This document shows positions 40,332 through 64,000 of a DNA stretch of 64,000 nucleotides, in pieces. Every line of letters starts with the position of its first letter. The stretch's first letter is position 1. Position numbers and translations under genes: made by a program. This stretch comes from a virus. The DNA is taken from the IMG/VR virus record IMGVR_UViG_3300014208_001433, positions 1 to 64,000 of that record. The stretch is one strand, 5' to 3'. The notes beneath the pieces were generated by a model. That model saw nothing but the letters and a program-made list of their open reading frames with translations, was not told where the DNA came from and ran no database searches.

Positions 40332-43300
40332 ATGTTTTTATATAAGTTACCGGATTATGAAGGGGGATTTGTTACTAAATCTATTGAGTGCAATTGCATA
40401 GTAACAAGAGATGCAAACGGGCACTTGCTGGACAGTAAACCGGTTAATTGTGTAAAGAAGGGAGTGAAAACAAATTTTGGAAAGGTTGTGGATTATTCGA
40501 AGAATTTTGTAATTCTGAAAAAAGGGACTGAGCTTAAAAGGGTGAAAAGGGAAGTTCTGAATAATATTTTGTTAAAGAGTTTGGAACAACCCGAGATAAC
40601 TTTAGAAAAGATAAAGGTATCGGGAAAATTTAATACACTTGCGGGGAAAGTGTTGGTAAAAAGTGAAAGTGAAATTGTTAGGGATGTATTAACTGATCCC
40701 GATAAAGTTTTGAGTAAGGGGAAAAGTGTTATTTTTTCTAAGACGATAAATGGGAAAGAGGTTGAGGCTAAGGTTGAGAAAACCTCAATGTTTATGAATA
40801 CGTTTTTACATAAAAGTATAACCGTAAAGGAAAGTGTTGCGGCGAAAAGAATTTTAATAAAGGGAATTGCAACAACGCTTAGAGCGCCGAAGGTGTTTAA
40901 TATTCAGTCGGCAGTCGGCAGTAGGCAATCGACAATGGGTGGAACTGCATGGAACGCGAAAGGGGGAATGAAACCGAATCATAAGTACATTGAACGGAAA
41001 CCGGCGAAAAGTGGAGACGGGTATATTTATCTGTATGAACTCCCTTCCGGTAAAAAGGAATGGAGAGATGAAGCGGGAAAAGCTGTTGAGGGGGGACAGA
41101 CGAGCGCCGATTATCAGTTGGAAGATTTTAAGGTGGGCGACATTGTTAGGCAGGATAATAAACTCGGCCGGATAATGGAAGCATCAACAAATATGCTTGC
41201 GGTAAATTTCGGCGGGGAAATGAAGGTGATCAACAAAAAAGAGCATGTTGAAAAGGTTAAGCAGCATCAACTAATGAAGGAAGGGGCCACGATGCAGTAT
41301 GAGGGGAACGATGCAAAGATATTGAGGATAACCGGCAAAGCGGCATTGATAAACACGGCTGATAATAAGCTAAAGGTGATCAATCTTGAAAAGCAGTTGG
41401 AGAAATACGAACCGAAGAAAGAGGAGAAACGGTTAAATAAATACAGTGATGTTTACCAGGGTGAAGCGGAGCGAAGGATAGGGAGCGGGGGAGCGGATAA
41501 TTACAACATCAGTTATGAAGAGCAGCCTAAGTATAAAAATTTTGTTGACGCGGCGAAGAAAACGGGATTTGGGAGAAAGAACGATCTTGAAATGGTGAAG
41601 CGCGTTGAAACGGAAAACGGGCTTAGAACGGTAAGGTGGAACTATAACCCGGAGGATCAGAATATTAGTTTTATGGTTGACGGGAAAGAAGATTATACTA
41701 TGAATTTTATGGGGAAGAAGTATAAAATAAGGGATATTACGGAAGACGGTTACAGTTTGGAAGATGCAGAAACTAAGGAACGGGGATTGTTCCTTTCTCA
41801 CAAAGATTATAATAATGATTTGAAACAACAAAGAGACGAGGAGAGAAAGAATGTTGTAGTTGAAAGAACGGGAGGGGTGAACGGATTTGAAACGGTTAAA
41901 GAACCGGCGCGAACTTTTAGGTTTAAACCGGAATACAGTGATGAAGAAAAAGAAAGGTTTGAGAAACGAGGGGGAAGAAGACCGAGCCGATGGACGCGAA
42001 GAAAAGATGAACCTTTGCAAAGCGAAGAGGAGAAGAAACGATTAACTGAATTGCAGGACGAGAGGGATAAAAAGAATAAGGAAGTTTTGGGAACGAAGGA
42101 TTTTGCAGACTTTGAGAAGTTACACAAAGAGAGAGGCTTTACAATTGGTGCAAATAGATTCCATGCAGCAAAAGAAATTGAGGCAGGCGGAAGAACATTC
42201 AGAATAAAGAGTGAGTTTAAGCCGGAGAAAATGAGCTGGCAGACTTCCATCGATGGACCTGTTAAGAAATTGCAGTTGGGAGAAAAACATTTACCGATAA
42301 CGGATATTTCAAAAGATAAAGTTTTCTACCACGAAGGGGGGGATGAAAAAAGTATAACCTTTGATGAGTTGAAAACGATTAACGGCAAGAGTTTGTTTGA
42401 ACCCACAAAAGAGAGTAAAGGAATTGTAAGTAATTTAGATCCGGTGAAGATATATTTTGACGATAAAGATGTAACGAGCGGGACTTATGAAATTGTTGAA
42501 GCTAATGAAATAATTGCTTCCCACAAAACGGATGGAACGCCAAACAGAGATTACACGATATCAGACGCGCAAAATAGAGACCGCAGCACTCCGCAAAGTA
42601 TTGCACAAATAAACAAGATCGCAGCGAATCCGAATTTTGACTTTTTAAGCGACAGTAAGACCGCGCAGGACGGCGCACCCATTGTTGATGAAGATTATAA
42701 CGTAATTGCCGGGAACGGGCGGGGAATAGGCGTACAGCTTCATTACAGCAACAAAGGGGAGAAGTATCGAAATGATCTGTTGAAAAAGGTTGAGAAGTAC
42801 GGTTTTAGTCGAGACGATGTTGAGAAGATGAAACAGCCTATTTTGGTAAGGCGAACGAATGTTGACGCAAAAGAGGCGCAACGATTGGGAGCAATTAGCA
42901 ATACCTCACAGATGCTTGCAACAGAGGAACGGGAAGCGGCAAAAGGAAAGGCAACAAGAATTGATGACGCTACAATAAATAATTTAGCCGATATGTTCAC
43001 AAAAGGGAACCATGAATCACTTAATCAATATTTGGATGAGATTGGACCGGATGTGGTAGGTGAGTTACTGAAGAAGAAAATTATCCCGGAGAATGAAGCG
43101 CACTTGTATATTGACCCGAAGAGCGGGAAAATGGATGCAGGGCACAAAGAAAAGGTTAAGCAAATATTAACGCAATCGGTTTTGGGAGAGAGCAGTAAGC
43201 ATTTTGAGAAGATACCGGAAGCGGCGAGAGCGGGAACGGTTAAAAGTCTTGGAGATATTTTTGCGCTGAAGGGGAAAGCGGGTGATCTTGTTCCTCACTT

Positions 43301-45428
43301 ACAGGAAGCGATAAAGGTTTTAGCAAAGTATGAAGCGGTTAAGAATAACTTTAAATCGCCGGATGATTTTGTTAAGCAGGCGGCAAATGACGCATTTGAA
43401 CCGTTGAAAGGAAGTAAAGAAGGATTGGCTTTATTTGATCTATTAGCAGACCCGATAAGAGAAGTAACGAAGGAAAACGGAAAGAAGGAAAAGAAAAACG
43501 TAATAAGTGATTTTATCCGTAAATATAAGTTAAGTTTAGAAGGGGATATGTTTGGCGAAGGCAAACCGGCGAAGGAAGCGTTTGATGAAGTGTTCAAGCC
43601 GAGGTACGAGAAGGGAGTGAATAAGAGTTTGTTTAGCAGATTGCGTATATTTGGTAAAAAAGTTTTTATGAAATCTGTTGATACGACAAAGAATATTTTA
43701 GCGCCGAGTAAAAAGAATCCGGGTGTAAAACGTTGGCAAAAGGTTGAGAGCGGAAAGTTGAAAGTTGCAAGTGGAAAGGTTGAGGATAAAACACAAGTGA
43801 CAAGTGACAAAAAGCAAGGGGAAGAAAAGATACGACTAAAAGATGTAACAAAATGGCATGAATACACAAAAGGAAGAATGATTGAAACAATTAGAAAAAA
43901 TGCCGTAGAAGGATTAAATAAAGAAATAGATAAACATCAAGCAGAAATCAAATCATATGTATATGTTCCCGATCCTTATGATTTTCGTGATACAGAGAAC
44001 CCAATAGAAATTAGTTTCTCGGGAAAAGAAAAAACAGGACAACCTATAATTATCAGGAATGGATTTGAATATAAATTTGCATATCAGAGCAATAAATACG
44101 ATAGATATGATAGATCACTCACAGATAAAGAGATGCAAGAAAAAACAGACAAGAAGAAAAAAGACATCCAATGGTTGATTGATTATAATAAAAAGAAAAT
44201 TGACGATATTAATAATGGTTTGATAGATAATAAATTGTTTGACGAAGAGCAGAAAAGAATTGCAAAAGAAAAAGACGACCGAGAAATTGAAATCGCAAAT
44301 AAATTCTATCCAAGTAAAAGTCTTTCCCGATCTTTAAGGGATATAACAGGAAAGAAACTAGGTTTGTCTTTGCACGACTTTCATGATGCAAAGGGTAATT
44401 CGGCGTATATAATAACTGATAAATTTAAAATACGATTTTCTGATCATGAGAGTAGAACTGAACAGGATTTCTATAGATTGGATGAAAAGGATAAACCTTT
44501 TCGTCCAGTTGAATATGAACCAGAGGACATTGACATAATAATTTACAAAGACCGGAGAGGGGACGCTGTTGTTACAATCGATGGGAATAACTATGGAATT
44601 GCGGATTATAATATTGATTCAATTGAAGATTTAAGCGAGTTCATACTTGAAAAGATAAATAAAAAAGTCGTTGATTCCGTAGAACCAACGACTACAAATG
44701 AAAGCAAACCACAATCGCTTAAGACAGAGCCGAACGCTAAAAGCGGAGCGGATGACTTAGGCAGTGATAAACGTGCCGAAGCACAGACGAAAAGTAGTGA
44801 AGAGAAAGGAGAAAAGCAAATACCGCAAACGGAGACGGAGAATTTTAAGAAGTGGTTTGGGGAGAGTAAGGTAGTGGATAGTGAGGGGAAGCCGTTGGTG
44901 GTTTATCATGGCAGCAAAACACAGTTTGAGGTATTTGATAAAGTAAATGGCGAATCATCATCTTCCGGTAGATTTGAAGGGTTTCACTTTGGGACATTAG
45001 ACCAAGCCAAAATGCGGAACGGTAAAATGGTTATGGCTCTGTTTCTAAAAGCTGAAAAATTACAACGGAGTAAAGATGAAGGAGGTAGGTGGTGGAAGAA
45101 AATTCAATCTGCAAAAAGTAGAAATTATGATGGCATAATTTATTTGAACAGATATGAAGGCATCCCTCTTGAAGAATATGATGAAGCAGAAAAACGAGGA
45201 GTTAAAACAGATGCCGATTCGCTTGATCGAATGAGTGATGAGCAATTTAGAAAAAATTTCCCATCAGCAAAAGATAGCTATATCGTTTTTTCTCCAACTC
45301 AGATTAAATCCGCTATTGATAATGACGGAAGTTTTGATCCGGAGAATGCGGATATTACCAAGGGGACGAAAATAACGAGGCGGATAATATTTAAGAAAAA
45401 GAAGAAGGATGAAACTTTTTTATTGTAG
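40332..45428 (+). CDS. Large polyvalent protein (ddrB-like ParB domain + ART-PolyVal-like domain)
   Basis: IIASH...QNRDR...DGAPIV...IAGNGR (~42480-42930); FKKWFGESKVVD..GKPLVVYHG...YIVFSPTQIKSA..N.G.FD (~44825-45360). Confidence 0.8.
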   Translation: MFLYKLPDYEGGFVTKSIECNCIVTRDANGHLLDSKPVNCVKKGVKTNFGKVVDYSKNFVILKKGTELKRVKREVLNNILLKSLEQPEITLEKIKVSGKFNTLAGKVLVKSESEIVRDVLTDPDKVLSKGKSVIFSKTINGKEVEAKVEKTSMFMNTFLHKSITVKESVAAKRILIKGIATTLRAPKVFNIQSAVGSRQSTMGGTAWNAKGGMKPNHKYIERKPAKSGDGYIYLYELPSGKKEWRDEAGKAVEGGQTSADYQLEDFKVGDIVRQDNKLGRIMEASTNMLAVNFGGEMKVINKKEHVEKVKQHQLMKEGATMQYEGNDAKILRITGKAALINTADNKLKVINLEKQLEKYEPKKEEKRLNKYSDVYQGEAERRIGSGGADNYNISYEEQPKYKNFVDAAKKTGFGRKNDLEMVKRVETENGLRTVRWNYNPEDQNISFMVDGKEDYTMNFMGKKYKIRDITEDGYSLEDAETKERGLFLSHKDYNNDLKQQRDEERKNVVVERTGGVNGFETVKEPARTFRFKPEYSDEEKERFEKRGGRRPSRWTRRKDEPLQSEEEKKRLTELQDERDKKNKEVLGTKDFADFEKLHKERGFTIGANRFHAAKEIEAGGRTFRIKSEFKPEKMSWQTSIDGPVKKLQLGEKHLPITDISKDKVFYHEGGDEKSITFDELKTINGKSLFEPTKESKGIVSNLDPVKIYFDDKDVTSGTYEIVEANEIIASHKTDGTPNRDYTISDAQNRDRSTPQSIAQINKIAANPNFDFLSDSKTAQDGAPIVDEDYNVIAGNGRGIGVQLHYSNKGEKYRNDLLKKVEKYGFSRDDVEKMKQPILVRRTNVDAKEAQRLGAISNTSQMLATEEREAAKGKATRIDDATINNLADMFTKGNHESLNQYLDEIGPDVVGELLKKKIIPENEAHLYIDPKSGKMDAGHKEKVKQILTQSVLGESSKHFEKIPEAARAGTVKSLGDIFALKGKAGDLVPHLQEAIKVLAKYEAVKNNFKSPDDFVKQAANDAFEPLKGSKEGLALFDLLADPIREVTKENGKKEKKNVISDFIRKYKLSLEGDMFGEGKPAKEAFDEVFKPRYEKGVNKSLFSRLRIFGKKVFMKSVDTTKNILAPSKKNPGVKRWQKVESGKLKVASGKVEDKTQVTSDKKQGEEKIRLKDVTKWHEYTKGRMIETIRKNAVEGLNKEIDKHQAEIKSYVYVPDPYDFRDTENPIEISFSGKEKTGQPIIIRNGFEYKFAYQSNKYDRYDRSLTDKEMQEKTDKKKKDIQWLIDYNKKKIDDINNGLIDNKLFDEEQKRIAKEKDDREIEIANKFYPSKSLSRSLRDITGKKLGLSLHDFHDAKGNSAYIITDKFKIRFSDHESRTEQDFYRLDEKDKPFRPVEYEPEDIDIIIYKDRRGDAVVTIDGNNYGIADYNIDSIEDLSEFILEKINKKVVDSVEPTTTNESKPQSLKTEPNAKSGADDLGSDKRAEAQTKSSEEKGEKQIPQTETENFKKWFGESKVVDSEGKPLVVYHGSKTQFEVFDKVNGESSSSGRFEGFHFGTLDQAKMRNGKMVMALFLKAEKLQRSKDEGGRWWKKIQSAKSRNYDGIIYLNRYEGIPLEEYDEAEKRGVKTDADSLDRMSDEQFRKNFPSAKDSYIVFSPTQIKSAIDNDGSFDPENADITKGTKITRRIIFKKKKKDETFLL

Positions 45429-45514
45429 GTGAAAAAAAGATTATTTAAGTTAACATATAACATTTTATATGAATTAACACAACAAACAACAATAACTCTA
45501 AAGGAGAAAAGACC

Positions 45515-45979: not shown

Positions 45980-45996
45980 TTCATTAGTACGGTTGT

Positions 45997-46033
45997 AAGT
46001 GGTTAGTAGTAATGTGTGACTAACCACTTTTTT
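45997..46033 (+). terminator. Rho-independent terminator
   Basis: AAGTGGTTAGT/ACTAACCACTT stem plus T-run. Confidence 0.7.
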
Positions 46034-46065
46034 AATTACGAATTCTCAATTAGGAATGAGGAATT

Positions 46066-46710: not shown

Positions 46711-46830
46711 ATGAACGGCAGGATGAGAATAGGCGAAGCTAGGTTTAGTTACTGGACAAATAGAGAGAGAAAAGAAGTTGCCGGGAATGAAGATCAATTT
46801 AATTTATTCACCCAGACCGAGGCAGCGTAA
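46711..46830 (+). CDS. Small ORF (39 aa, not in track)
   Basis: Ends QFNLFTQTEAA; TAATG overlap with next gene. Confidence 0.35.
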   Translation: MNGRMRIGEARFSYWTNRERKEVAGNEDQFNLFTQTEAA

Positions 46831-49800
46831 TGAAATTATTTGGAATGACAATAGCAAAGAGTAAAGATAAACCGAAATTGCTTAAAGCATTCGGGGTAAT
46901 ATTAAAAGCCTTCGGTACGCAGTTAGGAATGTTTAATGATGAAGTGATTGAAGGGCAGACGAAGCAGAAAGACGGGCACAGCTATGTAGTTAAGAGAAGT
47001 AACAAGAATCCTCTTGTAAAAAGATTATTCAGGGCGGATAAGGAGGAGAGTAAGCCGAAGGAACTGAGTTTGTTTGATAAGAAAGTTACAGTAGGCAGTC
47101 GGCAATCGGCAGTCGGCAATCGGGCAGAAAGTAAACCACCGAAAGCGGAACCAATAAGACACACAGAGCAACCGGAAGCAAAGGACGATCTCTTCAATCA
47201 ACCAAAGGAAGAGAGAAAAGAGCCGAAGGCAGAAATTAAAGTTGTTAAGGGGAAGAAAAACCGTAAAGAGATTAACGCTAAGGTTGAGGAGTTATTAAAG
47301 ACAAAGAAAAATGATGAGATGAGCGCTGAGGATGTTGAATTATTAGCGCAGTACACCGGACGCGGCGGATTGTTAGGAGATACGCTTGAGGATATCTCGC
47401 TTAATGAATTTTACACACGTAAGGATGAAGCGGAATTTATTTGGGATATGATAGGGAAGTTAGGTTTTAAGGGAGGAAATGTTTTAGAGCCTTCGATGGG
47501 AACGGGAATTTTTGTTGAGACAGCACCGGAGAAAGCGCTTGTAACCGGAATTGAGATTGAGGAGACGAGTGGAAGAATCGGACAGATTTTACACGGCAAT
47601 GAACACGATATCAGAATTCAGAGTTTTGAACAGTTTGTAAAAGACTATGATAATATGGGAGCGGATTTAGAAGGGGGAGAATATGACGCGATAGTTGGGA
47701 ATTGTCCGTTTGGTAAAAGGGGATTGAGCGCAATGGATGATAGGGAAAAGAGCGATATAAAATTCCATGAGCAATATTTTATTGATCGAGGTTTGGATAT
47801 GTTGAAGCCGGGGGGGATAATGGCAATGATCGTTCCAACAAGTATAATGGATAACCAACTTAATCAATGGCGGGGAGAGGTAAACAAAAAAGGGGAATTT
47901 TTAGGAGCAATACGAGTACCAACCGGAGCATTCAAACACACAGACGCGCAAGTAACCACAGATATAGTTTTCTTTAAGAAAAGACCGCCGGAAGTAATTG
48001 ATCACTTGAACAAACTTTCCAAGGAAGAACTTGGGGAAGCTTATGACGATATGGTAATGGATGCTGATTTTGTTTCGGGGAATTTCTTTAAGAATAATCC
48101 GGAGTATGCATTGGGCACGGAAACAAGCGGAATGTTCGGAATGAAGATTTGGAAGGGAGATATTACAAAGGCTGATCTTGAAAAAGTCGGTGAGTTATTA
48201 AACCATGAGGCAAGAGATTACAGCAGTTTAGGAATTGATGTTAGTAAATATGGTGAGTTAGAAAAAGAACTTGAACCGGGAGATGTAAAGATATTAAACG
48301 GAAGAACTTACATACTTAATAAAAACCATAGATGGGAAAGATTGAAAGATCAGGAAGTAGTATTACAAAACTTACCGGAAGACATTAAAAAACTTGGTAT
48401 TACGAGTTGGGATGAATGGAGAATTAAGAGTGAGGACACAGCTTATTTATACGGTTTGGATAAGGACCAACTTAAACTTTTCGGACAAACAAGAATAGTT
48501 AATGAGCTGGATGGATACAACGGCAAGAATGATTTTCAGACGGAATATTTAACAAAGGGAGTTGTGTTAGGTTTAGCAGTAAAGGATTTCAGAAAAGAGT
48601 TGCAAGACGGAAGATTATCCGCTGAAGAGGCGCAAATGGAAGCGGGGAAACTGAAGATATTGCTAAAGGATTTTATTGAAAAGTATGGACACCCGATTGA
48701 GAATTTAAAGTTAAATAAATTTTTTAAGAACAGCGGAAACGCGCCACTTCTTAATTTGGCAGGTAGCTATGATAAGAACGGCAACACTATCAAGATGTTT
48801 GATGATCCGCTGTCTTTTTATAAAGTTTATCAAACGAAGAGCGAAATAGGAACAGTTGATAGGAATAATATTGTTTCGGTAATCGGTTTTCTTTTTGCAA
48901 ATAATTTTCCAACGGATTATCAAACGGTACGAGGCGAGTATGAGGGGGATGGAGATATTGAAAGAGAGCTTGCATATAGCGATGAAATTTATTTTGATGA
49001 AGAAGGAAATTATAAACCGAAAGAGGAAGTCCTTTACGGTTACATTTACGAAAAAATTGACGCTTGGGAAAAGCAACGAACCGAACTGAAGAAGGAATCC
49101 AAGAACGAAAAGTTAAGCGATAAAGAAAAAGAACTTAACGCGCAAAAAATGCGAAAGCTCGAAGATCAGATAATTGAGGCGAAGACGAGAGCGAATATCA
49201 GGGAGATTAAGCAGCTACCAATAATGTTAAGCGATGCAGGGAGTATTTACGATATTGGTATTTTAAACAAATATTTGGAAGAAAAGATAGGGGCGCATTT
49301 CTTAGGTGAATTACGCAAAGATGAAAAGAGTGGTTTCATTCTTCCGGTTGATGAGAGTTCGGCAAAATTATATTTAAGTTATGCAGATATTACGAAAGAG
49401 GGGAAATCAACAGATGTAAAACGGGAATTGCGGGATCTCTTTAATAAAGATGAGCATCCGTTGTTATTTATGATTTTAAATAAGATGAATGGATTAGGTT
49501 TACCGGCATTACGGACAGAGGAAGGGATTGCTAAGAAAGAACAAGTCTTACAACTTGAAACAGATTTTAAGCAGTATTTATCCGATAGTGAAGAAGCTGA
49601 TAAAATTGCAGATACTTATAACAGGTTGTTTAATTCTTACATACAAAAAACGTATGATGAAAAACCGATAGAGGGAATAAAGCATTTTGCTTATGATAGA
49701 GTAGTTGGAAAAGACGCAAGCGGAAAAGATATAACCGGAAAAGATAAGGCGGGCGGGCATACTTGGGCAACGGTACGCAGAATGTATGAACAGGGTAAGG

Positions 49801-52800
49801 GGATGATTGCTCACGGAGTTGGATTAGGGAAAACTTTGGAGGCATTAACTTTAACTTTATTAAGTAAAGAAACCGGAAGAGCAAATAAGCCTTGTATTGT
49901 TTCTCCGAAATCAGTTTTATTAAATTGGGTTGCAGAAATTGAGAAGTGGACACATGGAGTAAATTATTTATTAGTCGGTTATTCCAAAAAAAATGAAAGC
50001 GAAGGATGGACGGAAGAAAATACGATAGAAGATAGCCGCGAAGTAAAAGAATTGAAGTTGCAACGTGCGGCGAACGAAGATTTTGACATGATTTTGATGA
50101 GTAGGGATTTATTCGGTACAATTGACTTTTCGCCGGAAACGAAAAAGAATATGCTTAATGAATTGATGGATAAGTATTACCCGGAGGGGAACCGGTTATC
50201 AACATTCTCTGATGGAGATAGTAAGTACGCGAAGAATGTGAAAAAGAAAAGAGATACGTTGTTAAGAAATCTTTCCGAAATGATGGACATACCGGAACCA
50301 TTGGGAGGAGTTTATCTTGACAACATAGGAATAGATATGTTGGTAAGGGATGAAGCGCACGACACGAAGAACTTATTAGTACCGATGGAAAGTGAAATTA
50401 GCGGAGTGAACAGCAGTACATCCCAACGAGCGATGCACAATTTATTTGCAAGCAAGATCATACGCGGACAAAATAATGATATGGGATATTTTGGGTTGAC
50501 GGCAACACCGATAAGTAATTCACCGTTAGAAGTTTTTAATATGATGGTGCCGTTTGCAGAGAAGGAACTTGAAAAATTACAAGTCCAAAATATGGATGAC
50601 TTTGTTAGCAGGTTTGCCGACATTGATAATATCCCAACCACAAGTGCAGACGGAAGAGTTATAGTAAAGAATAAATTCTCGGGCTGGAAGTCGGCCGAGG
50701 CATTAAGAAACACTTTCTTTAGATTTGTTGATTATAAGACAAAAGATGATGTTGAAAGCGTAAAGGCAAATATAAAATTCCCAAAAGAGAAAGCGGCAAA
50801 TGTGCTGAGTGATTTGAATGAAGGGCAAAAAGAAATAGTGAAGCATTGCAAGTTAAGGTTATGGATGTTAAGCAGCCGTGTATTTGATAAGGATAATAAG
50901 ACATGGGATTTTAATGCTGACAAGTTACAAGAAAAAGTAGGTGAGGGATTAATTAGCCAGGACGAAGCAACGGAAGTTTTGAATTATTTTAATGATGAAT
51001 ATTTACCTAAATATGAAGCATTGAATGCGAGGCTTGGTCCGGACGATACACCGAATGACGATCACTTTTTTAAAGTGCAGCAGGATCTAATTAAAGCAAC
51101 GAGTGATCTGCCCTGGTATAAAGATAAGCACAGCGAATATTCAAAAGAAGTTGATGATGATTTGGTTAAACAACATAGCGATTTAAAGAAGTTCGCGCAG
51201 TTGAATGAGAGCGCATTATCAATACATAAGAGCGGGGGGAAGCAAATTATCTTTGCCATCAACACGGCATTGCACGAAAAGATCAAAAATGATTTAGTGA
51301 AATCGGGAATACCGGAAAATGAAATAGTAATTGTAAACGGGAAAACGGTGAGCAGCTCGAGTAAAAGATTGCAGATAAGCAAAGCTTACAATGATGGGAA
51401 ATATAAGGTAGTAATAGGCAATTACGCAACTATGGGAGAGGGATTAAATTTTAACTATATGACAAGCGATATTCACCATTTGCAACCGGCTTGGAACCAT
51501 TTACAGATAGAACAGGGGAACGGAAGAGGGATACGGCAAGGGAATCCATTAGACAGTGTAAATACGCATTACTATTTAACGAAGGGGAGTATTGACGGAT
51601 TTATGAATACCAAGATTATGGATAAGGCGGGAATGGTTGATAAGTTCTTAAAGGGTGAAACGAGCCGTTGGGATGACGAGGTTCAGCTAGAGGCGGATGA
51701 AATGATGATTGAGTTAGCCGATAATCCGGAACAAGCAAAGGCATTATTAGCTTTCAGAAATAAAAAATTACAAGATGCACTTGCAGAGCAGCAACGGCAA
51801 TCTAACTATAAACAGTTGGATAGATTGTATGAAGTGAAAAGAAAAAAATCGGGAATGGCAGAAAAAACTTCTAAACAATATCAGATGATGGAACAGGAAG
51901 AAAGAAGTTTAACGGAAAAACTTATTGAAGCTAATTTTGAGCATAAAGGAAAACTTGATTATGATAGAACACCGGTAATACTACCAGGGATAAATAAAGT
52001 AATCCCGGTAGGTGGTATTTTAGAGGGGAAAAGCGGAGAGTTTTATGTTGTTGAAGATTATGCGCCATCGACCCAAAGAGTGAAGATAAGAACGTATAAA
52101 GCCGGAACGCAGGGTGATATGGTGGGAACCCGTGCGATAAGTGCAAAAGAACTAGACAAAGAATTTAACGCATTACATAAAGAAACCGACTTAGATTTGG
52201 GAGGGATGTTCAAAAAAATTATTGATGATAATGAAGAAGTTGGAATTAATTTTATTAGCAAAATCCCAAAGGAAATTTTGCAAATAAATAAAGTTAAACT
52301 GCTTGAGAAACTTAACAATACCGATGAAGTATTATATCAGACCATGGACGGTGATTTCAAAGTTGCAGATTACGAAAGCGCAAAGGATGAAATTGCAACC
52401 GAAGGAGGGAAGATAATTTTTCCGCAAGAGAAACCGGAATTCCCGAAAATATTAAATGAATTGATAAAACTGCATAAACCAAAGCAAAATTGGGGAGAGG
52501 GTTATTATCAATTTAGAAAATATAAGAATTTTGCAACTTCTATTTATGGTGAGAACTATGAGAACGCAATTAAGAAAGAGATCAAACGGTTAAACGGTGA
52601 AGCAACTGAAACAAGTTTTGCCATCCATACAACCGGCGCGAAATATAAAAAGACATTGAAGGATTTAGCCGATAATGGATATATGAATGATTACACTTAT
52701 AAAAGGATAATGCAAGGTAAAGCTTATGATGAATTATCAGAATTTAGTAACGCGCTTAGGGCGGAGTTTTTTGATAATTATAATATAAGACAACAAGATA

Positions 52801-54257: not shown

Positions 54258-54300
54258 GATAAAGTTTACATTATTTTTACAAGATAAAAAGGAGCTTCAA

Positions 54301-54848: not shown

Positions 54849-56225
54849 TTGAATAACACGTTTGAATTTTTTGCACCGGCTTATTTGGTTAAAAGCGGAA
54901 GTAAAACCGAACCTTACAAGGTTGGCGGAACAATTTCTACAGAGAACCGGGATACTGATAATGAAATAATGAAGAGTATCGATTGGAGTTATTTCACTTC
55001 CGGTTTTGGCAAAATTAAATACGAACATAAGGATATCCCAGAACCGCATTGTTTTATTGGCTTTCCGACAAAGTTAGGGAAGAGCGGGAAATCATGGAAC
55101 TTTGAAGGAGAACTTGTTGCATACGATCCGGAATTGCCGGATGAGAAATTAACACAACAGCAAAAACTTGCAAAAAGCACGGTTACTCTTTTACAGCACA
55201 TGGATGAATTTAATAAACGTCATCCAAATGCGATGCAAAAAGCGGGATGGAGTGTTGAGGGAGAATATTTGTCGAAAAGCAAGGACGGGGTTGTTTCGGC
55301 AAGAGTTGTAAATGTAGTATTTACAACTAAACCACGGAACAGAGAAACGTTTGCAAAATTAGTTAAGAGTTTAGAAGTGGGGTATGGAATGACACCCGAT
55401 ACACAAACGGGATTTGGGGCGACAAGAAAAGAATCAATTGATCATAACATTAAACTAAATGGAGTTACAAAAATGGAAACGAAAAATGATGTGTACAAAA
55501 AATGCTTAGCCAAAGGGATGAAACCGGAAGAGGCTAAGAAAGCGGCTGATGAATTTGAAGCAAAGCAAAAAGGAGAGATGAACGAAAGTTTTGAGACCGC
55601 TGCAAAATCATTGGGCACGGCGAAATTATCTCTTCAAAAATCGCTTGATACAGCTAAATCAATCTCTGAAATAGAGTTTGAAGTTGATATTAAAGCGCAG
55701 GAAAAAAGTTTGCAAAAATCAATCGCGCTGATGAACAAAGGCGGAGAAGAAGCAGATATTTCCGATTACCTTGAAAAATCCTCTGAAATTTCTTTGAACG
55801 CATTGAAAGCGCTGGACGCAATTAATCAAAAAGTTGATCTGTTGGCAAAATCGATTGTTCTTTTAGCAGAAGGACAGTTGAATCAAGTCTCAGGTGATGA
55901 ACATTTGGTAAAATCTCTTGATTTGGTGAATAACCAAGTTGAAGATCAACGGATGGGACTTTTAACCTTGGTGAGCAAGCTTAGAAAAAGTACCGGCAAT
56001 AATTTGTTGACCGACAATATCACTTTTGCTGAAAACAACAAGGATTTAGGGACAGGCGTAGAACTTAACAAAGCGCAAAAAGTAAAAGTGCTTGAAAAAT
56101 TGGTTGCGGAAAAATCGGTTGACGAAATTGTTTTGGTTGACTTTAGCGCCGGTGGTACACAGGCAACTTTGCCGGAATCGGTTGAACAGTTGGTGAAATC
56201 AAAAGCTGTTGACATGTTCAAGTAA
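54849..56225 (+). CDS. Prohead protease fused to scaffold (nested ATG at 55473)
   Basis: STENRDTDNE, KYEH, GWSVEG, TTKPRN; helical C-half; GGAG-8nt-ATG in frame at 55473. Confidence 0.85.
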   Translation: MNNTFEFFAPAYLVKSGSKTEPYKVGGTISTENRDTDNEIMKSIDWSYFTSGFGKIKYEHKDIPEPHCFIGFPTKLGKSGKSWNFEGELVAYDPELPDEKLTQQQKLAKSTVTLLQHMDEFNKRHPNAMQKAGWSVEGEYLSKSKDGVVSARVVNVVFTTKPRNRETFAKLVKSLEVGYGMTPDTQTGFGATRKESIDHNIKLNGVTKMETKNDVYKKCLAKGMKPEEAKKAADEFEAKQKGEMNESFETAAKSLGTAKLSLQKSLDTAKSISEIEFEVDIKAQEKSLQKSIALMNKGGEEADISDYLEKSSEISLNALKALDAINQKVDLLAKSIVLLAEGQLNQVSGDEHLVKSLDLVNNQVEDQRMGLLTLVSKLRKSTGNNLLTDNITFAENNKDLGTGVELNKAQKVKVLEKLVAEKSVDEIVLVDFSAGGTQATLPESVEQLVKSKAVDMFK

Positions 56226-56293: not shown

Positions 56294-57727
56294 ATGGACG
56301 ATTTAATGTTTGGCGAACTTGCCGTAAACGGATCAGCTTATGGCGGCGCATCAACAGTAAAAGAACTCCAGGACTTAGCCAAAGCTCTTGAGGTTGGTTA
56401 TGCGATGGGGACAACGGACCAAACCGGATTTGGAGCCACAAGACTTGAAAGCCTTGACCCGGTTGTAAAATGGCTTACCCTAAACGAATCTTCCCCGGCA
56501 TTCTTTAGAGCAATACGAAAAGGGAAGGCTTCCAGCACGGTTGAAGAATTTGTAACCATGAATGAGGTAGGAGATGCTAATTTTTATTCTGAAGGCGGAT
56601 TACCGGACGAATATGATGAAGATATCCGAAGAGAATTTGAGCAGGTAAAATACATCGGAACCGTAGGTAAAATTCCTTTGCAGGCTTTAATGGTAAAAAG
56701 CAATACCAATAACGAAGCGCTTGTTACAAGAGCCAAAGCACTTGCGATAATGAAAACCGCAGATAGCAAAATAATCTATGGTGATGCTGCTCGTAATCCT
56801 TACGAATGGAATGGTTATTACAAACAATTTAAAACAAAAGCAAAGAATGTAAGCCAAAACACAATTGATTTGCGCGGTAAACGTGTTAGACCGGAAACCT
56901 TAAATGAATCGGTACAAATTATTGCCGATAACTGGGGAAACGCAAATAACGTAAAATGCTGGATGAGCGCCAAAGATTTTCAATTTTATACCGATGAATT
57001 GTTAGCCGGTAGAAGATTTGTGGTAGGAAGTTCTGAAGCCCGTGATCTTATCGCTTCCGCGAAAAGATTTGAACTTGGGAACGGAAAAGGAAATATTGAA
57101 ACCGATATTCTTTTGAAATACAAGGGTCAAAATTATATAGGCGCAGAGTATCCTAAAACAAACACCGCGATGACAGTATTTGCAGCAACAAACAGCAAAG
57201 CACCAGCCACCCTTAACTCAAGCACTGCAACTATTTCAGTTGATACTGATGCAGCTACCTTGCTTGACGCAGCAACTTACGATTACGCATTTGTACCGGT
57301 TAATAAATACGGTGCGGGCGCAGCATTTGAAGTTAAAACAAACGTTGTTGCAGCTTCTAAACGCTGTACTTTTACCTTAACTGATAACGGTTCACCTTCA
57401 GGACAAGAAGCAACAAGTTTTGATATTTACCGTAAACTTTCATCCGCAACTGCAATTACAAGTTATAGATATTTAACTTCGTTTACAGCAGCCGAAGCAA
57501 AGATCGATAACGGTGAATGGATACCGGGAGCGACTAATATTTTCTTATGGGATTGGGACTTTGAACAAGTACTCGATTTCCGTCAATTACTGCCAATGAC
57601 TAAGATGGGATTGGCTCAAATTGATGATTCCAAGAGATGGATGCAAAAATTATGGGCAGTGCCGATTCTTGTAGCACCAAACAAAATGGTGATGATAAAG
57701 AACGCGGGTTCTACTGCTTGGGCTTAA
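56294..57727 (+). CDS. Major capsid protein (SPO1/Twort-like)
   Basis: LAKALEVGY...Q.G.GA.R.ESLD N-arm, STVEEF, IYGD...EWNG, IDLRGK, LLPMTKM.LA. Confidence 0.88.
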   Translation: MDDLMFGELAVNGSAYGGASTVKELQDLAKALEVGYAMGTTDQTGFGATRLESLDPVVKWLTLNESSPAFFRAIRKGKASSTVEEFVTMNEVGDANFYSEGGLPDEYDEDIRREFEQVKYIGTVGKIPLQALMVKSNTNNEALVTRAKALAIMKTADSKIIYGDAARNPYEWNGYYKQFKTKAKNVSQNTIDLRGKRVRPETLNESVQIIADNWGNANNVKCWMSAKDFQFYTDELLAGRRFVVGSSEARDLIASAKRFELGNGKGNIETDILLKYKGQNYIGAEYPKTNTAMTVFAATNSKAPATLNSSTATISVDTDAATLLDAATYDYAFVPVNKYGAGAAFEVKTNVVAASKRCTFTLTDNGSPSGQEATSFDIYRKLSSATAITSYRYLTSFTAAEAKIDNGEWIPGATNIFLWDWDFEQVLDFRQLLPMTKMGLAQIDDSKRWMQKLWAVPILVAPNKMVMIKNAGSTAWA

Positions 57728-57751
57728 CGGATTAACAAACAAACAAATTTC

Positions 57752-58605: not shown

Positions 58606-58614
58606 AGATGTGCA

Positions 58615-59691
58615 ATGAAGACAATAAAAAAAGGGATTTCACAACTTATAACCCTTGATCAGACATTATTAGGCAGCGGAAAACACGTTTACTTGACGAT
58701 GATCGGTGAAGACGGTTCGGTGATTAAAAACTCTTCAGCGGCAGATATAAAAGATTTATCACTTTCCTACAACGCAACTTCATCTCTCTATGAAGCAGCC
58801 GTAACTGTAGCCTCGGATGAGCCGGAACAATATGTCCGGCTCTTCTTTTATGCTACAGACGCGAACGTAGAGAATAAATATTATCCGGAAGATGCAAAAT
58901 TGGAAGCAGTAGCCGGCATAATTACAACCGAGGCTGAAATTGTACCGGTACAGTTTTTTATTGATTATGTTCTGGCTTCTTCAAGCAGATTAGACCCGGC
59001 GTATGAAGCGGCGATAACGGCTTTTTCGGAGGATAGAGCGGGATTAAGAAGTTACTTAAAGAGCGCACAAGATACTCTTGAAAAACAATGCGAGCTTTAT
59101 TTTACCGAACGGACAAAGACCGAGAACCGTGATAATTATTTTGAAAAATTCAGTATGAATCTTTGGCAAATACAAGTTTATAACCCACCAATAAATGATT
59201 TAACAAGTGTAAAGATAAAGTACGGCAATACCGAGTTAATGGGTATTGGTGTTGATCTTTTTACGTTTGACCGCATGACGGGAATAATTGAATTTTTACC
59301 TTTACCAACTGGTGGAACAGCAGGGCTTTATACTTTGCTGTTAGGCAGTTTAAGCGCGTTGGGTTTATCTGTTTTAACCGGCGGAGCGCTGGAACGGATA
59401 CCAAACTTTTTTGAGGTAACGTACAAAACGGGGTTAGTTTATGCAGGCGCAGACCCGTTTGAAGTTGAAGGGATAAGACAGGCTATTTGCCGCAGAGCAT
59501 TCCTAAGTTTGGTCCATCATGTAGATCCCGCGGCAAGAGTAGTTAGCGAAAGTGAAAGCATTGACGGAGTTGCAAGCAGTATTAGTTCGGGAGTTGCTAA
59601 GGTAATTACCGAACTGAAACAGGACGAAGTAAGTTATTTAAACGGTTTGCGGCAGAAGTACGGGAAGAACTTTAATGTAGTTATCGGGTAA
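58615..59691 (+). CDS. Head-tail adaptor/neck protein
   Basis: YLKSAQDTLEKQ, IPNFFEVTYKTG, SESIDGVASS, LRQKYG. Confidence 0.7.
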   Translation: MKTIKKGISQLITLDQTLLGSGKHVYLTMIGEDGSVIKNSSAADIKDLSLSYNATSSLYEAAVTVASDEPEQYVRLFFYATDANVENKYYPEDAKLEAVAGIITTEAEIVPVQFFIDYVLASSSRLDPAYEAAITAFSEDRAGLRSYLKSAQDTLEKQCELYFTERTKTENRDNYFEKFSMNLWQIQVYNPPINDLTSVKIKYGNTELMGIGVDLFTFDRMTGIIEFLPLPTGGTAGLYTLLLGSLSALGLSVLTGGALERIPNFFEVTYKTGLVYAGADPFEVEGIRQAICRRAFLSLVHHVDPAARVVSESESIDGVASSISSGVAKVITELKQDEVSYLNGLRQKYGKNFNVVIG

Positions 59692-59842
59692 TTAGGAATT
59701 AGGAATTAGGAATAAACTTGGAACAATATTTTGAAGCCGTTAGAAAATTGCCGGTTGGGGATTGGAAAGTAATTGCGGAGTTCCATAGGATAATTATGAA
59801 TTATAAAAAGATGAAGCGGTTAGCTGATAAGCATAAAATAAA

Positions 59843-60634
59843 ATGTTAAAAATTATTGATGAAAATATTGTACGGAGTCTAAGACGGTTCGGGCAAACGG
59901 TAAAGCATTACCCGGGCACGTTGTGCAGTTGCATTGGTGAAAATAACGGTGTGCCGTTATTAAACCATACTTGCAACCAGGGTTATTATTACGGAGCGCC
60001 GGAAACAATTATTGCAATACGCACGGCGATATCTTACAAATACCTAAACACGCCGCAAGGGGTAATTTATGACGGAGGCGCAACATTTACCATCCCAAGA
60101 TTGAATTTAAGCGGAGCCGAACAGAGAGCTTATTCTGTTATTACGCACGGAGATATTTTGGTTTGTGATAATAAGACCAGACGTGACACAGATATACTGA
60201 AGCGTGGAACCCGTGATTTTATTTACGCTTTTGATATTACCGAAGTAATTGGCATATACCGTAACAACACAAAATATGATGCAACGGATTACACAATTAT
60301 TGAGGATGATTATAAAACGTTACTTGGTGATGACGGTTTACCGCTTACCGATGAGAACGGAGTACCAACGGGAGAAGTAAGAGACAAAGCGGATATTGTG
60401 GGTAAATTAATGGCGGTTGTTTGGGCAACCGGCAAAGGACCGGCAACGGGTGAAAGTTACACGGTGGAATTCATTTGTGCTCAACAGTTTAAAGTATGGG
60501 AAGATGCGGGAAGTGATAGGGGAACGGATGAAAACAGACTACCGAAAAAGATGCTTACCGTATTAAGAAGATTTGTTACACCGGTGGAAAATAACCTTGA
60601 CACCGTAGAAACGACACAGGAGTTGTACACATGA
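59843..60634 (+). CDS. Head-closure/neck protein
   Basis: GQTVKH...LCSC...C.QGYYY, LPKKML; follows adaptor. Confidence 0.6.
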   Translation: MLKIIDENIVRSLRRFGQTVKHYPGTLCSCIGENNGVPLLNHTCNQGYYYGAPETIIAIRTAISYKYLNTPQGVIYDGGATFTIPRLNLSGAEQRAYSVITHGDILVCDNKTRRDTDILKRGTRDFIYAFDITEVIGIYRNNTKYDATDYTIIEDDYKTLLGDDGLPLTDENGVPTGEVRDKADIVGKLMAVVWATGKGPATGESYTVEFICAQQFKVWEDAGSDRGTDENRLPKKMLTVLRRFVTPVENNLDTVETTQELYT

Positions 60635-63600
60635 TAATTACATTATTTGGAAAGTCAATAAAATTTGGGAAGAACCCGAACCAGATAGATATGTTTGCAA
60701 CCGCCGGAGCGGAAAAGGAATTTGCGCCAGGGGATAAACGCAGACTTGAACTTACAAGCGGCGGGAAGTTGCGTTGGAAGAATGCGGATGAGGAAGGGAG
60801 TGGAAAGTTGAAGGTTGAAAGTGGAAAGAATGCAACTCCGAACAATCAAAACATTAGAGAGGAAAAAGGTTTATTCAAAGAAGCGTATGAACAAACGCAA
60901 GATGAATATGCGCAAAAGATGTTCAGAGGACCAATAGCTGAAGTTAAAAAATTTAAAGACCCGAATGATTTGGAAGATATTGCAATCTCTAACGAACAGC
61001 ACAAAGTTATTATTAAACACGCTATTCGAGAAGGTAAAGAGATCCCGGATGCAGTAATTGAACCTTACAAAAATTCGCATTGGGCGAAGGAATATTTGAG
61101 TAAAAAAGTTGATTACTCACAAGAGCTTATAAACACCGCGCAAACAAGTAAGACTTTCGATAAGTTTTTAACAAATGTTAGAATCCATGTATTCCCAAAC
61201 GAGTTTCTTAAAAAAGAGTTGGGGTTAGGAGATGACAACGTACAAAATAGAAAAAAACTTAATGACTATTACAACAGGCAAAAAGCAGAGCATAGAGAAC
61301 AACGTAAAAAAGATAAAGAAGAAGGGGATAAGGCAATTGCCGAATTGCATGTAGATCAAATAGAAAAATTAGCACTTCAACAGTATGGCGGGAAAGTGGG
61401 GAAAGAAAAAAAGATTGATGATGATAAAATTGCAGAGTTGTATAGGAATAGCCCGATATCTATTCAAGTGGATAAGATGAGCAATAAAGCGCAAGAAATT
61501 TATAATAACGCCGGGAACCAGGCAGAAAAACAAATTGCATTTGATCTTTGGAATTATGGGAATGGGATACAGGATGAGTTTGTAGAAAAGTACGTTAAAG
61601 GGGAAAAGATAAGTACTGAAGATGTTATGGAAGTAAAGAGAATTGCAAACATATTGATAAAAGGCGCTGATGAAGAATTTGAGAAAGTAAAAAATGGGAG
61701 TAAGGCAAAAATTACGATCAAGAAAAAGAAAGAAGAGCCGGTTAAAAAAGAACCTTGGGAGAGAACTTTATCGGATATGATACAAAATGAAATTACAAAC
61801 CGTGAAATTTTTGGACCGGAAAGTTATCCTAAATGGATAACGGATAATACTAAAGTGGAAATTGCAGACCGAAGAACCGGAATTGTTTATGATCATTTTA
61901 CTCTTGCAAGCCCAACACAGGAAAGATTAAAACATTATGGGAAACTTGCACATTATGAAATTATAAAGCGAGCCTTAGTTGACGGCAAGCCCGTACCGCC
62001 GGAAGTGTTGAGGGATTATCCGGAGTTGGAAAAGGAAACTTCACTTATAAGTGAATTACCTTTTACTGCATCATTAAAAAAAGATTTAGAAAGTTACGGC
62101 GAAAAGACAAAAAATATTTTAGTTGAAGGGACGTATCAACCATTTGCTGATTGGTTTAAGAAACAATACCCGGATCAAGAATTTAAAATCGGTAAACATC
62201 AAGATGGAGGACCATTTATCGCTATAACTGGAGGAGGAGAAATTAGATATTCAGCTTATCAGAAAGATAATTCTGAAAACGAAATAAAATTATCAAAGTT
62301 AAAAAAACGGAAAGAAGTTCTTGGGGAAAAACTTTACTCCGAGAAACTTAAAAATCACAAGAAAGTATCTAATATTGGTTTTGGCACAAATATGAGGGGA
62401 TATCAAAAAACGAAACAATTAAGTTTTAGAAGAGAAGATGAATTGCAACAAAAAATAAAAGAGATTAACGAAGAAATAAAAGATTTATTACCAAAGAATG
62501 TTAGTGAATCAAATAAAAGCATCTTCAAAAATTTATTTAAAGCCTTTGGGAAACAAATATCAATGTTTGGAGCGCAGCCATATCAAAAGGAAGGGCAGAC
62601 GAAAGAGGGACGCGGAGGCACGTTGAAATTAACGAGGGACAGCTCGGGAAAGGGAGCGCATTGGAAGTTAGTCGGCAAAGGGCAATCGGCAGTGGACGGT
62701 CAGCAGTCGGCAGTTGGCAGTGGGCAAGAAAAACAAACTGGCGGAAAGATAATTACTCCGGCTAATGCTTTTGAATTGTTGCAGGATAAAATTGGTAATA
62801 GTGTGTTACTGCAGGACAATGAAGGAAACTTGTTAGGTGAGGGAGCGTTACAGCTTGTGAACGAAAACAGTGAAGGCAATTATTCTTTGTTCTTAAAAGA
62901 GGCAAATGGATTTGATTCTCTCGTATCGATACCAAAGAACCAGGCAGTTGTACAGAAGGAAGACGGGATAAGTTTTAAGTTTGCAGATAAGAATATTTTA
63001 ATATCAACAATTGAGAAAAGCAAAATTCCCAATAAGCCGGTTGAAATGGAAAAAGCCGAAGAGAACGCGAAACATGCGCGTAACTTAGAGAAGATGCGGA
63101 ATTTTAACGAATGGCAAAAGAAAGCCGACAGTTATGCAAGAACAGCGAACGGGCAAAAGGATTGGTTTTTTGGTGATATGGAAATTGCCGCCGACGCTGA
63201 AGGTTTAGAGTTTGGAGTGAAGAACCGCATCATTAAAAAAGCCGATACACTGTTTAAGGAAATAAAGAGGAACGCAACAAGGGATGATAAGGCTGAGATA
63301 TACAGCGCACTAATCGGAGCATTTGAAGTGAAAAGCGTTGCTAAGGCAAAAGCTGTTATTTCCAACTTAAAGAAGAAGGGGTATGAAATAGACGCTGATC
63401 AGTTGGACCAACCGAAGGATAAAGAAAACTTTTTTACAAGGATAAAAATAAGCAAAGGGGAAAACGATCCTTTGCCGAAGGAGTTGCAGTTTGCAACCGG
63501 TGAATATGCCTTGGCATTTGAAGAGTGCGCGAAGAAACCAAATCCTTTAAGAGAAACAGAAATGAGTTTGGGCTTAAAGATCAATGCTGAAGGGGTGCCG

Positions 63601-64000
63601 GAGTTTAACACAATTAAGAAACAATTGTTTAACCTGGCCGGAGAAGGATTGGGACAATTATGGGTTACGGGTGGTTTACCGGGAAGCGGAAAGAGCAGCA
63701 CACTTGGAGGTGAGTTTTATAAAAACAAAGTTTTGATAGATCCCGACAAAATAAAATATATGCTTGCTGAGGAAAGAGGAATATCGCAAGAAGAGGTAAA
63801 TAAAAAGCCTTGGGAATTGCATGAGGAAAGTTCGAATATTGCCAAGCATTTGGTCCGTGAAGCAATACGCGAAAAGAAAGATGTAATTTATGATGTTACC
63901 ATGAAGGGGACGGAAAATTTAAACGATCTTCTTTACATGGTGAACAGCGATACTTTTCAGGCGAATGCTGAGTTTATTCATCTCCCGATTGAAAAGGGAA
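60631..64000 (+). CDS. Third large polyvalent protein (>1120 aa, runs off window) with Zeta-toxin-type P-loop kinase
   Basis: ATGA overlap; no stop in the lines I translated and none implied by the ORF track; GGLPGSGKSS, IDPDKIK, HEESS, DVIYDVT at 63661-63900. Confidence 0.8.
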   Translation, partial: MIITLFGKSIKFGKNPNQIDMFATAGAEKEFAPGDKRRLELTSGGKLRWKNADEEGSGKLKVESGKNATPNNQNIREEKGLFKEAYEQTQDEYAQKMFRGPIAEVKKFKDPNDLEDIAISNEQHKVIIKHAIREGKEIPDAVIEPYKNSHWAKEYLSKKVDYSQELINTAQTSKTFDKFLTNVRIHVFPNEFLKKELGLGDDNVQNRKKLNDYYNRQKAEHREQRKKDKEEGDKAIAELHVDQIEKLALQQYGGKVGKEKKIDDDKIAELYRNSPISIQVDKMSNKAQEIYNNAGNQAEKQIAFDLWNYGNGIQDEFVEKYVKGEKISTEDVMEVKRIANILIKGADEEFEKVKNGSKAKITIKKKKEEPVKKEPWERTLSDMIQNEITNREIFGPESYPKWITDNTKVEIADRRTGIVYDHFTLASPTQERLKHYGKLAHYEIIKRALVDGKPVPPEVLRDYPELEKETSLISELPFTASLKKDLESYGEKTKNILVEGTYQPFADWFKKQYPDQEFKIGKHQDGGPFIAITGGGEIRYSAYQKDNSENEIKLSKLKKRKEVLGEKLYSEKLKNHKKVSNIGFGTNMRGYQKTKQLSFRREDELQQKIKEINEEIKDLLPKNVSESNKSIFKNLFKAFGKQISMFGAQPYQKEGQTKEGRGGTLKLTRDSSGKGAHWKLVGKGQSAVDGQQSAVGSGQEKQTGGKIITPANAFELLQDKIGNSVLLQDNEGNLLGEGALQLVNENSEGNYSLFLKEANGFDSLVSIPKNQAVVQKEDGISFKFADKNILISTIEKSKIPNKPVEMEKAEENAKHARNLEKMRNFNEWQKKADSYARTANGQKDWFFGDMEIAADAEGLEFGVKNRIIKKADTLFKEIKRNATRDDKAEIYSALIGAFEVKSVAKAKAVISNLKKKGYEIDADQLDQPKDKENFFTRIKISKGENDPLPKELQFATGEYALAFEECAKKPNPLRETEMSLGLKINAEGVPEFNTIKKQLFNLAGEGLGQLWVTGGLPGSGKSSTLGGEFYKNKVLIDPDKIKYMLAEERGISQEEVNKKPWELHEESSNIAKHLVREAIREKKDVIYDVTMKGTENLNDLLYMVNSDTFQANAEFIHLPIEKG

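Follow-up and report, generated by a model that had tools for sequence, protein, structure and literature searches.

In the present study, a stretch of viral DNA of 64,000 nucleotides (IMG/VR record IMGVR_UViG_3300014208_001433, positions 1 to 64,000; referred to below as the window) was analyzed with respect to three giant proteins, PV1, PV2 and PV3, encoded in a phage head-gene block. The giants were found to carry the signal of the phage's own head protease, a Phi-x-K-[SAG] motif, at their starts and at their module joints, and this placement makes it probable that they enter the capsid, are trimmed and are then injected, as the internal proteins of phage T4 are. With modest confidence, our analysis favors the reading that all three are capsid-internal cargo ("polyvalent") proteins packaged with N-terminal trimming by the head protease. 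That they are also cut internally into separate units is plausible, and we lean slightly against it. The motif statistics, their conservation, the protease fold and the borders of the modules are observations; packaging, cleavage and injection are inferred by analogy with T4 and phiKZ/SPN3US.

PV1 (40332..45428; 1698 amino acids, aa) contains a DdrB-type ParB domain (aa 716-842), a junction cassette and an ART-PolyVal ADP-ribosyltransferase (ART) domain (aa 1516-1668), as indicated by Pfam and 16 homologues. PV2 (46830..52946; 2038 aa) is a DarB-like protein with an Eco57I-type methyltransferase (aa 263-351) and an SNF2 helicase (aa 983-1355), and it matched phrog_11801 (E 2e-204), phrog_10089 'DarB-like antirestriction' (E 7.7e-105) and the Pfam families PF07669 and PF00176. 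PV3 (60631..64000; 1342 aa in full) has a Zeta/polynucleotide-kinase-like P-loop (aa 1009-1153; Pfam and phrog_505); its open reading frame (ORF) runs 659 bases beyond the window end, and the whole ORF was taken from contig C1, the bacterial contig that contains the window. Polyvalent proteins are recognized by at least two unrelated conflict-type domains per chain in a phage late-gene context, and this was found here (ddrB-ParB with ART-PolyVal; Eco57I methyltransferase with SNF2; Zeta-toxin-like P-loop). The features of the giants, the protease-scaffold and the capsid gene given below lie on the plus strand.

Specificity of the head protease

The protease-scaffold fusion (54849..56225; 458 aa) was assigned to the phrog_1028 head maturation protease (E 6e-18). 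In its AlphaFold2 (AF2) model, a beta-rich protease domain (aa 1-161) is connected by a disordered linker (aa 164-208) to a set of long helices (aa 212-457). Among 48,161 chains, the top match of the protease domain was T4 gp21 (5jbl_A; Z 11.1, root-mean-square deviation 3.1 Å, 137/165 residues). Residues H60 and S135 are invariant in 22 protease sequences (31-82% identity) and are presumably the catalytic His/Ser pair. The ORF contains 12 L-x-K-S sites against 0.4 expected and 17 Phi-x-K-[SAG] sites against 3.3 expected. Moreover, all 51 homologues (31-94% identity) hold 10-21 sites each, where about 3 are expected, and an unbiased count of spaced tetrapeptides of the form 'a.bc' returned L.KS as the commonest in nearly all 51 scaffolds. 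The scaffold sites persist in relatives at 82-95% identity with the middle residue varying (LVKS to LAKS or LRKS). Judged from these sequences, Phi-x-K-[SAG] is a family-wide signature of the phage's head protease. An earlier note on this DNA had defined the motif from the capsid and the scaffold, and this definition is upheld by the excess in the scaffold and by the enrichment in every one of the 51 homologues; furthermore, re-translation confirmed that the tetrapeptides which it listed are all present at their places and coordinates.

The major capsid protein (56294..57727) has an SPO1/Twort-like HK97 fold (phrog_752, E 1.6e-65; PDB 9vel_C, which is SPO1 gp6.1, 5lii_P and 9row_B). Its predicted maturation site, L28-A-K30/A31-LEVGY (56375..56401), aligns with V22-V-K24/S25-FQTGY of 5lii_P, a staphylococcal Twort-like capsid precursor of 463 aa that reads E-D-V-V-K24-S25-F-Q-T-G-Y at this point. 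The same staphylococcal protein in 9row_B has 439 residues with Q27 as residue 3, so the mature chain starts at S25, and SPO1 gp6.1 has L-N-K-A-LEAGH at the same position. An explicit statement of the Twort-like cut site was not found in the literature searched, and the cut was read from PDB chain lengths; on this basis the Twort-like capsid family appears to be cut after Lys in Phi-x-K/S or A. The statement in the earlier note that Twort-like capsids are processed N-terminally near such a site is borne out by these two chains.

A likely self-cleavage site, L-V-K173/S174-LEVGY (55359..55385), lies between protease and scaffold; K173 and S174 are invariant, and the segment has a predicted local distance difference test score below 50. 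The stretch 55359-55454 of the protease-scaffold gene is 62% identical to the capsid stretch 56375-56470, covering the site and the next 30 residues of the mature capsid N-terminus (major capsid protein aa 28-59). This copy of the capsid arm (LEVGY...TGFGATR.ES) is conserved family-wide and sits in the disordered linker. From the alignment, K173/S174 is probably the point where the protease frees itself from the scaffold, and the capsid-arm copy could be a case of substrate mimicry or a docking element.

Leaders at the starts of the giant proteins

The first 182 residues of PV1 (40332..40877) form a candidate propeptide with eight Phi-x-K-[SAG] sites, among which K16, K43 and K177 are invariant. 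Eight of the 13 sites of PV1 fall in its first 180 aa (binomial p 1e-5). When all 123 contig proteins were scanned, eight sites in 180 aa were reached in only 0.3% of shuffles (family-wise p ~0.003), and this density equals that of the densest 180-aa stretch of the scaffold itself. Moreover, each of 16 PV1 homologues (34-82% identity in the N-terminal region) keeps 6-9 sites in the first 200 aa, in support of the N-terminal cluster noticed earlier. The positions of the sites between aa 130 and 160 differ by lineage, as would be expected if selection acted on how many sites there are and not on where they lie. The AF2 model of this region consists of two beta domains (aa 1-85 and 94-167) and a disordered linker (aa 167-213); L-L-K-S80 closes the first domain and the last site, L-I-K177-G, lies in the linker. 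A Foldseek search with the model of PV1 aa 1-330 gave template modelling scores of only about 0.1 and nothing usable.

PV2 and PV3 open with much shorter leaders. The PV2 leader (46830..47009) has a 10-residue start ending in I-A-K10/S, then L-L-K/A and I-L-K/A, and then QLGMF (46920-46934). The N-terminal leader cassette of PV3 (60631..60828) has an 8-residue start ending in F-G-K8/S, followed by QIDMF (60682-60696) and EKEFAPGD...GKLRWKNAD; in the alignment of this leader, F6, K8, Q18, F22 and GKLRW are invariant. Thus each giant has a leader that ends in the motif of its own head protease (PV1 aa 1-177 with its eight sites, I-A-K10 in PV2 and F-G-K8 in PV3), and these leaders are conserved in relatives.

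For eight non-redundant head loci of relatives, with 34-96% identity in the protease, the starts of the giants (complete ORFs of at least 800 aa) were compared with those of the other proteins. Of 15 giants, 12 had a site starting within 20 residues of the N-terminus, as did 11 of the 91 other ORFs (Fisher p 2e-7). Capsid proteins account for four of these 11, and orthologues of the ORF at 58615 for three. In addition, 1.84 billion representatives were searched with a profile built from the PV3 leader, and 24 proteins matched, among them 21 further cargo-type proteins. Ten of the 24 matched only at an internal cassette, and eight of these ten distant proteins still have a start of the form M-x(2-8)-Phi-Phi-x-K-[SAG] (binomial p 4e-7, taking 10% as the base rate).

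The ORF at 58615-59691 (358 aa), 3' of the capsid gene, has an N-terminal Phi-x-K-G/S site of its own (M-K-T-I-K-K-G), also present in the orthologues of loci L019 and L021. By its sequence, its product could be a further substrate of the protease.

Internal copies of the leader and module exchange

The junction cassette of PV1 (aa 1096-1160; 43617..43811) consists of V-N-K/S, a 16-aa basic amphipathic peptide, F-M-K/S, a degenerate Q-L-x-L-F (K-N-I-L-A) and P-S-K-K-N-P-x-V-K-R-W-Q. That of PV3 (62503..62655) reads (S-N-K-S) I-F-K-N-L-F-K/A-F-G-K, then QISMF (62554-62568) and EGQTK...HW, and resembles the PV2 leader. PV1 aa 1096-1160 aligns to the PV3 N-terminus, and PV3 aa 632-671 aligns to PV2 aa 21-58, which identifies the junctions as leader copies inside the proteins. 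As a whole, the leader cassette comprises K sites of the type Phi-x-K-[SA], of which there are one to three, then Q-[LI]-x-[LMI]-F 7-19 residues further on, and a basic element last, which occurs as N-P-x-V-K-R-W-Q, G-K-L-R-W-K-N or H-W-K. The K sites are often paired, 13-16 residues apart, around the basic amphipathic peptide. Complete giants also open with the cassette. Within 30 residues upstream of 16 Q-x-x-x-F anchors, 19 K-sites were counted where 3.06 were expected, and 15 of 17 members of the family retain the pair of sites at the PV1 junction. By count, the N-terminal and junction sites of PV2 and PV3 are indistinguishable from chance; they are conserved in relatives, their leaders are short and they stand at module boundaries. 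The earlier note had counted these starts and the PV1 and PV3 junctions as capsid-type cut motifs: the conserved sites and site pairs support it, numerical excess does not, and the junctions have a richer make-up than cut motifs alone.

The conserved junction pairs lie at the very places where modules have been exchanged, gained or lost among relatives. PV1 orthologues are collinear up to about aa 1160 and continue into unrelated C-termini of 65-1300 aa. The PV3 orthologue of locus L006 keeps aa 1-55 and 627-end around a different middle. In PV2 orthologues, I-A-K-S-K and D-K-P-K-L-L-K-A-F-G are separated by a pyrophosphatase-like cassette of 145 aa, and an additional ART-like cassette is present in some of them. 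The type-I pyrophosphatase-like (InPase) cassette occurs in L004, L008 and L009 and is absent as a clean indel from the PV2 of the window, at 46863-46868 (aa 12/13). As a separate observation, the PV2 orthologue L006:3-7232 has an intein-like insertion of about 390 aa (C-F-I-K-G ... V-H-N/C), absent from the window, which splits methyltransferase motif I (EPS/CGTG).

Short DNA repeats accompany the cassettes. A tandem 7-nt repeat, CAGTCGG, of about eight copies (62670..62726, plus strand) encodes a QSAVG linker just 3' of the internal cassette of PV3. Further CAGTCGG repeats at 37425-37462 (portal C-terminus), 40905-40931 (PV1) and 47089-47123 (PV2) encode QSAVGSR linkers, and (GAAAGTT)n at 43753-43783 and 60799-60828 encodes SGKLKV, which follows the PV1 junction and the PV3 leader. 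Heptamer copy number varies among relatives in frame-preserving steps, and these repeats may serve as joints at which modules recombine, or they may be tracts prone to slippage. The occurrence of QSAVG in the portal as well raised the idea of a second cut site, which was rejected, as QSAVG reflects a DNA heptamer repeat that varies and is missing from some orthologues.

These repeats bring in the possibility that the junction sequences are mainly recombination joints, in which shared leaders and 7-nt repeats give microhomology for module shuffling and the protein motifs are by-products. The PV1 junction (43741-43778) and the PV3 leader (60791-60828) do share 84% DNA identity over 38 nt, the PV2 and PV3 starts are 85% identical over 26 nt, and CAGTCGG and GAAAGTT heptamers flank cassettes in four genes, with relatives breaking exactly there. 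However, the K, Q and F positions are kept in phages at 34-50% protein identity although the DNA similarity is gone, which argues for selection on the protein, and we consider this explanation improbable.

A candidate sliding-clamp docking element

The Q-L-x-L-F element of the cassette resembles the clamp-binding consensus Q-phi-x-[L/M]-[F/L], of which QLxLF is strongest (PMC11139829). Q[LIM]x[LIMF]F was found about 20 times in the giants of related loci, where about 1.5 were expected, and once in all other contig proteins, where 2.2 were expected; Q-L-x-L-F never occurs in the 51 scaffolds. The copies QIDMF, QLGMF and QISMF in the window, and QLDLF, QLSLF, QLGLF and others in relatives, fit the consensus, and one relative has four Q-L-x-L-F copies within 100 residues. 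The host DinB (QVNLF) and MutS (QINMF) carry similar motifs near their C-termini, and the host DnaN gene was located (L072:1489-2610). Two of the leader-profile matches (P0083 and P0090) are beta-propeller repeat proteins with QIDLF/QLDLF as a structural repeat, so the pentapeptide alone is not diagnostic. Outside the giants, a solo DNA methyltransferase of 537 aa in a related phage (L016:2568-4181) ends in S-E-T-Q-L-G-L-F-D-I-A-V-N-Q, a C-terminal motif of the clamp-binding type.

These data bear on a further explanation, in which the cassettes are host-targeting or assembly-docking motifs and not cut sites: Q-L-x-L-F would dock on the host sliding clamp or a phage hub, Phi-x-K-[SA] would be part of the same basic amphipathic element, and the giants would act as intact chains, as P1 DarB does. 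The excess of the pentapeptide in the giants, its match to the published consensus and its resemblance to the DinB and MutS motifs agree with such docking, as do the packaging of DarB and N4 vRNAP uncut and the spacing from the internal K-A to Q, which is fixed at 7 residues as in one extended motif. However, docking leaves the exact match of the K motif to the scaffold and capsid motif unexplained; the PV1 N-terminus has 6-9 motif copies without Q-L-x-L-F, and the N-terminal spacing varies over 10-19 residues. We regard docking in place of cutting as unlikely. The two readings are compatible, since cleavage immediately before the docking motif would place it at a newly made N-terminus. Clamp docking together with cleavage is a tentative lead suggested by the sequence motifs. 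In its full form, which we put forward with reserve, each enzyme unit would start with a tripartite cassette of cut sites, clamp-docking peptide and basic element, in-capsid cutting would leave the docking peptide at each new N-terminus, and the injected units (anti-restriction, ParB-like, ADP-ribosylating and kinase) would gather on clamps bound to host DNA before phage gene expression.

Weight of the evidence and proposed mechanism

Several results weigh against the packaging and trimming of the giants by the head protease. Over whole proteins, the Phi-x-K-[SAG] counts are at the expectation from composition (13 against 10.1 in PV1, 14 against 10.9 in PV2 and 10 against 6.8 in PV3; p 0.15-0.2). 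The mature start of 9row_B comes from chain length and alignment offset, not from a paper. PV1 aa 1-167 is modelled by AF2 as two beta domains and not as a floppy propeptide. The main internal argument is that six of its eight N-terminal sites lie in strands or turns, so that Phi-x-K-G/S could be a structural pattern; the earlier expectation that sites would fall in inter-domain linkers holds for K177 and not for those six, and L-L-K-S80 lies at the end of a domain. In addition, the compared giants are homologous, and the Fisher and binomial p-values overstate independence. Some PV1 relatives stop 65-95 aa past the junction, which is therefore not only a separator. Finally, P1 DarB and N4 vRNAP are packaged uncut (PMC9024508, PMC5512222), and internal cutting is thus not the rule.

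Whole-protein enrichment in the giants was accordingly rejected. Their motif rate exceeds that of other contig proteins by only 1.7-2.2 times (p 0.01-0.05). The earlier note had asked that density exceed that of non-virion proteins such as SbcC; taken whole, the giants do not rise above expectation, and what stands of this comparison is a low SbcC-like control (1 motif against 4.6 expected) and the position-specific clusters. The regions between the leaders are poor in the motif, with 6 sites against 15.2 expected over three regions chosen post hoc (PV1 aa 181-1090, 1 against 4.9; PV2 aa 31-1400, 4 against 7.1; PV3 aa 11-620, 1 against 3.2). As read from the sequences, the motif signal in the giants is positional and not one of overall density. 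The single sites ITKG and FLKA are at chance level in a non-conserved part, and the significance once attached to ITKG, after the ART domain, was not sustained. A second cluster, in the helicase region of PV2 (aa 1420-1606, six sites in 180 aa), was not significant (family-wise p 0.16), and small clusters in the ORF at 4819-5127 (two L-x-K-S) and the endolysin-like ORF at contig C1 68695-69468 had no supporting context; all were set aside.

Whole-protein counts at expectation are what would be seen if the giants were late cytoplasmic enzymes absent from the virion, for example enzymes modifying progeny DNA, with motif positions due to chance or composition. Against this stand the position-specific statistics and conservation, the place of the genes between the portal and capsid genes, and the homology to packaged P1 proteins, and we consider such a role very improbable.

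Under the favored reading of packaging and trimming, the giants would be expressed late from the head-gene block, and their leaders would carry them into the procapsid along with the protease-scaffold fusion. The activated protease would then cut the scaffold at 12-17 sites, itself at K173/S174 and the capsid protein at K30/A31. The cargo would be trimmed at the same stage: the 177-residue N-terminal region of PV1 would be removed or chopped, with the last cut at the invariant K177 in the disordered linker, and PV2 and PV3 would lose leaders of 10 and 8 residues, respectively. Less certainly, the paired sites at module borders might split the ParB-like half of PV1 from its ART half, and the front half of PV3 from its Zeta-kinase half. 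The trimmed enzymes would stay inside the head until they pass into the host along with the DNA. Cutting by the head protease is supported by the giants themselves, in which no peptidase family, MPTase or other, was detected with Pfam at E up to 0.01.

Genomic context

The window corresponds to bases 2-64001 of contig C1 (119 kb), part of a 4.19-Mb bacterial assembly. The left end (window 1-2429) encodes a tRNA, a tyrosine integrase and a serine-recombinase-like protein, and host thrS, rplT and pheST lie at the right (contig C1 93282-99935), with host genes from about 93 kb. This arrangement identifies the region as an integrated prophage of roughly 90 kb, temperate and of the myovirus type, and the assembly as its host. 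A search for near-identical DNA among phage records gave no match. A Herelleviridae-like head on an integrated prophage of about 90 kb is an unusual combination.

The gene order is a portal-like ORF (35788-37587), PV1, a small methyltransferase, PV2, four small ORFs, the protease-scaffold, the capsid gene and PV3, and all three giants are encoded between the portal and tail genes, inside the head block. The MuF protein that the earlier note had placed upstream was not confirmed, as the ORFs at 37584-40321 had no Pfam match (E up to 1) or PHROG match, no structure-based search having been made. AATTAGG repeats stand directly 5' of several late genes (35140-35169, 38911-38932, 46034-46066, 54245-54259 and 59690-59713) and may be a shared translation or transcription signal of late genes.

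Relation to known systems

The internal proteins IPI-III and Alt of phage T4 have a capsid-targeting leader of about 10 residues, are processed by gp21 and are cut at L/I-x-E. The present system resembles them in the short leader ending in the head protease motif (8-10 residues in PV2 and PV3), in an ADP-ribosyltransferase among the cargo, in a protease of the gp21 fold and in a scaffold chopped at many motif copies. Unlike in T4, the motif here follows Lys (Phi-x-K/S, A or G) and not Glu, the protease is fused to the scaffold, and the cargo consists of multi-enzyme chains of 1300-2000 aa with internal leader copies.

The ejection proteins of SPN3US are made with propeptides of 111-254 aa at their N-termini, which contain several protease motifs and undergo more than one cut (PMC10052503). 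The first 177 aa of PV1, with eight sites, look the same; however, the phiKZ/SPN3US specificity is A/S/G-x-E, the proteins are unrelated and the PV1 region is predicted to be folded. In phage P1, DarB is packaged into the head via its first 30 residues and stays intact, DdrB is packaged in processed form, and the capsid protein is cut after Glu120 (PMC9024508; PMC5512222). PV2 shares the DarB methyltransferase-helicase architecture and PV1 the DdrB-type ParB domain, whereas DarA or Hdf partners are not recognizable in this phage.

For polyvalent proteins, Iyer et al. (2017) predicted packaging and processing, assigned the cutting to an MPTase within the chain and made no mention of clamp-binding motifs (PMC5512222). 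The giants resemble this class in having several unrelated conflict enzymes per chain, a late or virion gene context and mosaic evolution. They differ in that the MPTase, frequent though not obligatory in the class, is not detectable and the sites match the head protease. Finally, the capsid is about 27% identical to those of the Twort/SPO1-like phages (Herelleviridae), with the same N-terminal cut position before (F/L)-x-x-G-(Y/H) and a protease of the same family, phrog_1028, whereas the phage described here is temperate, resides as a prophage in a different host group and has its giants inside the head block. Three features are new here: a lysine-specific motif that was read from a fusion of protease and scaffold, a leader cassette that recurs at the borders of modules, and the clamp-like peptide.

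In conclusion, polyvalent proteins are widespread and their route into the host is largely conjecture, and in this prophage a candidate packaging and processing signal can be read from the sequence. The motif is anchored, via the specificity of the protease, to a solved capsid structure, which yields predicted cut sites and a rule for finding cargo in related phages. Moreover, the leaders provide a candidate tag of 8-10 residues for loading foreign proteins into the head of a phage with a lysine-specific protease. If Q-L-x-L-F binds the sliding clamp, it would represent a new host-targeting principle for injected phage enzymes.

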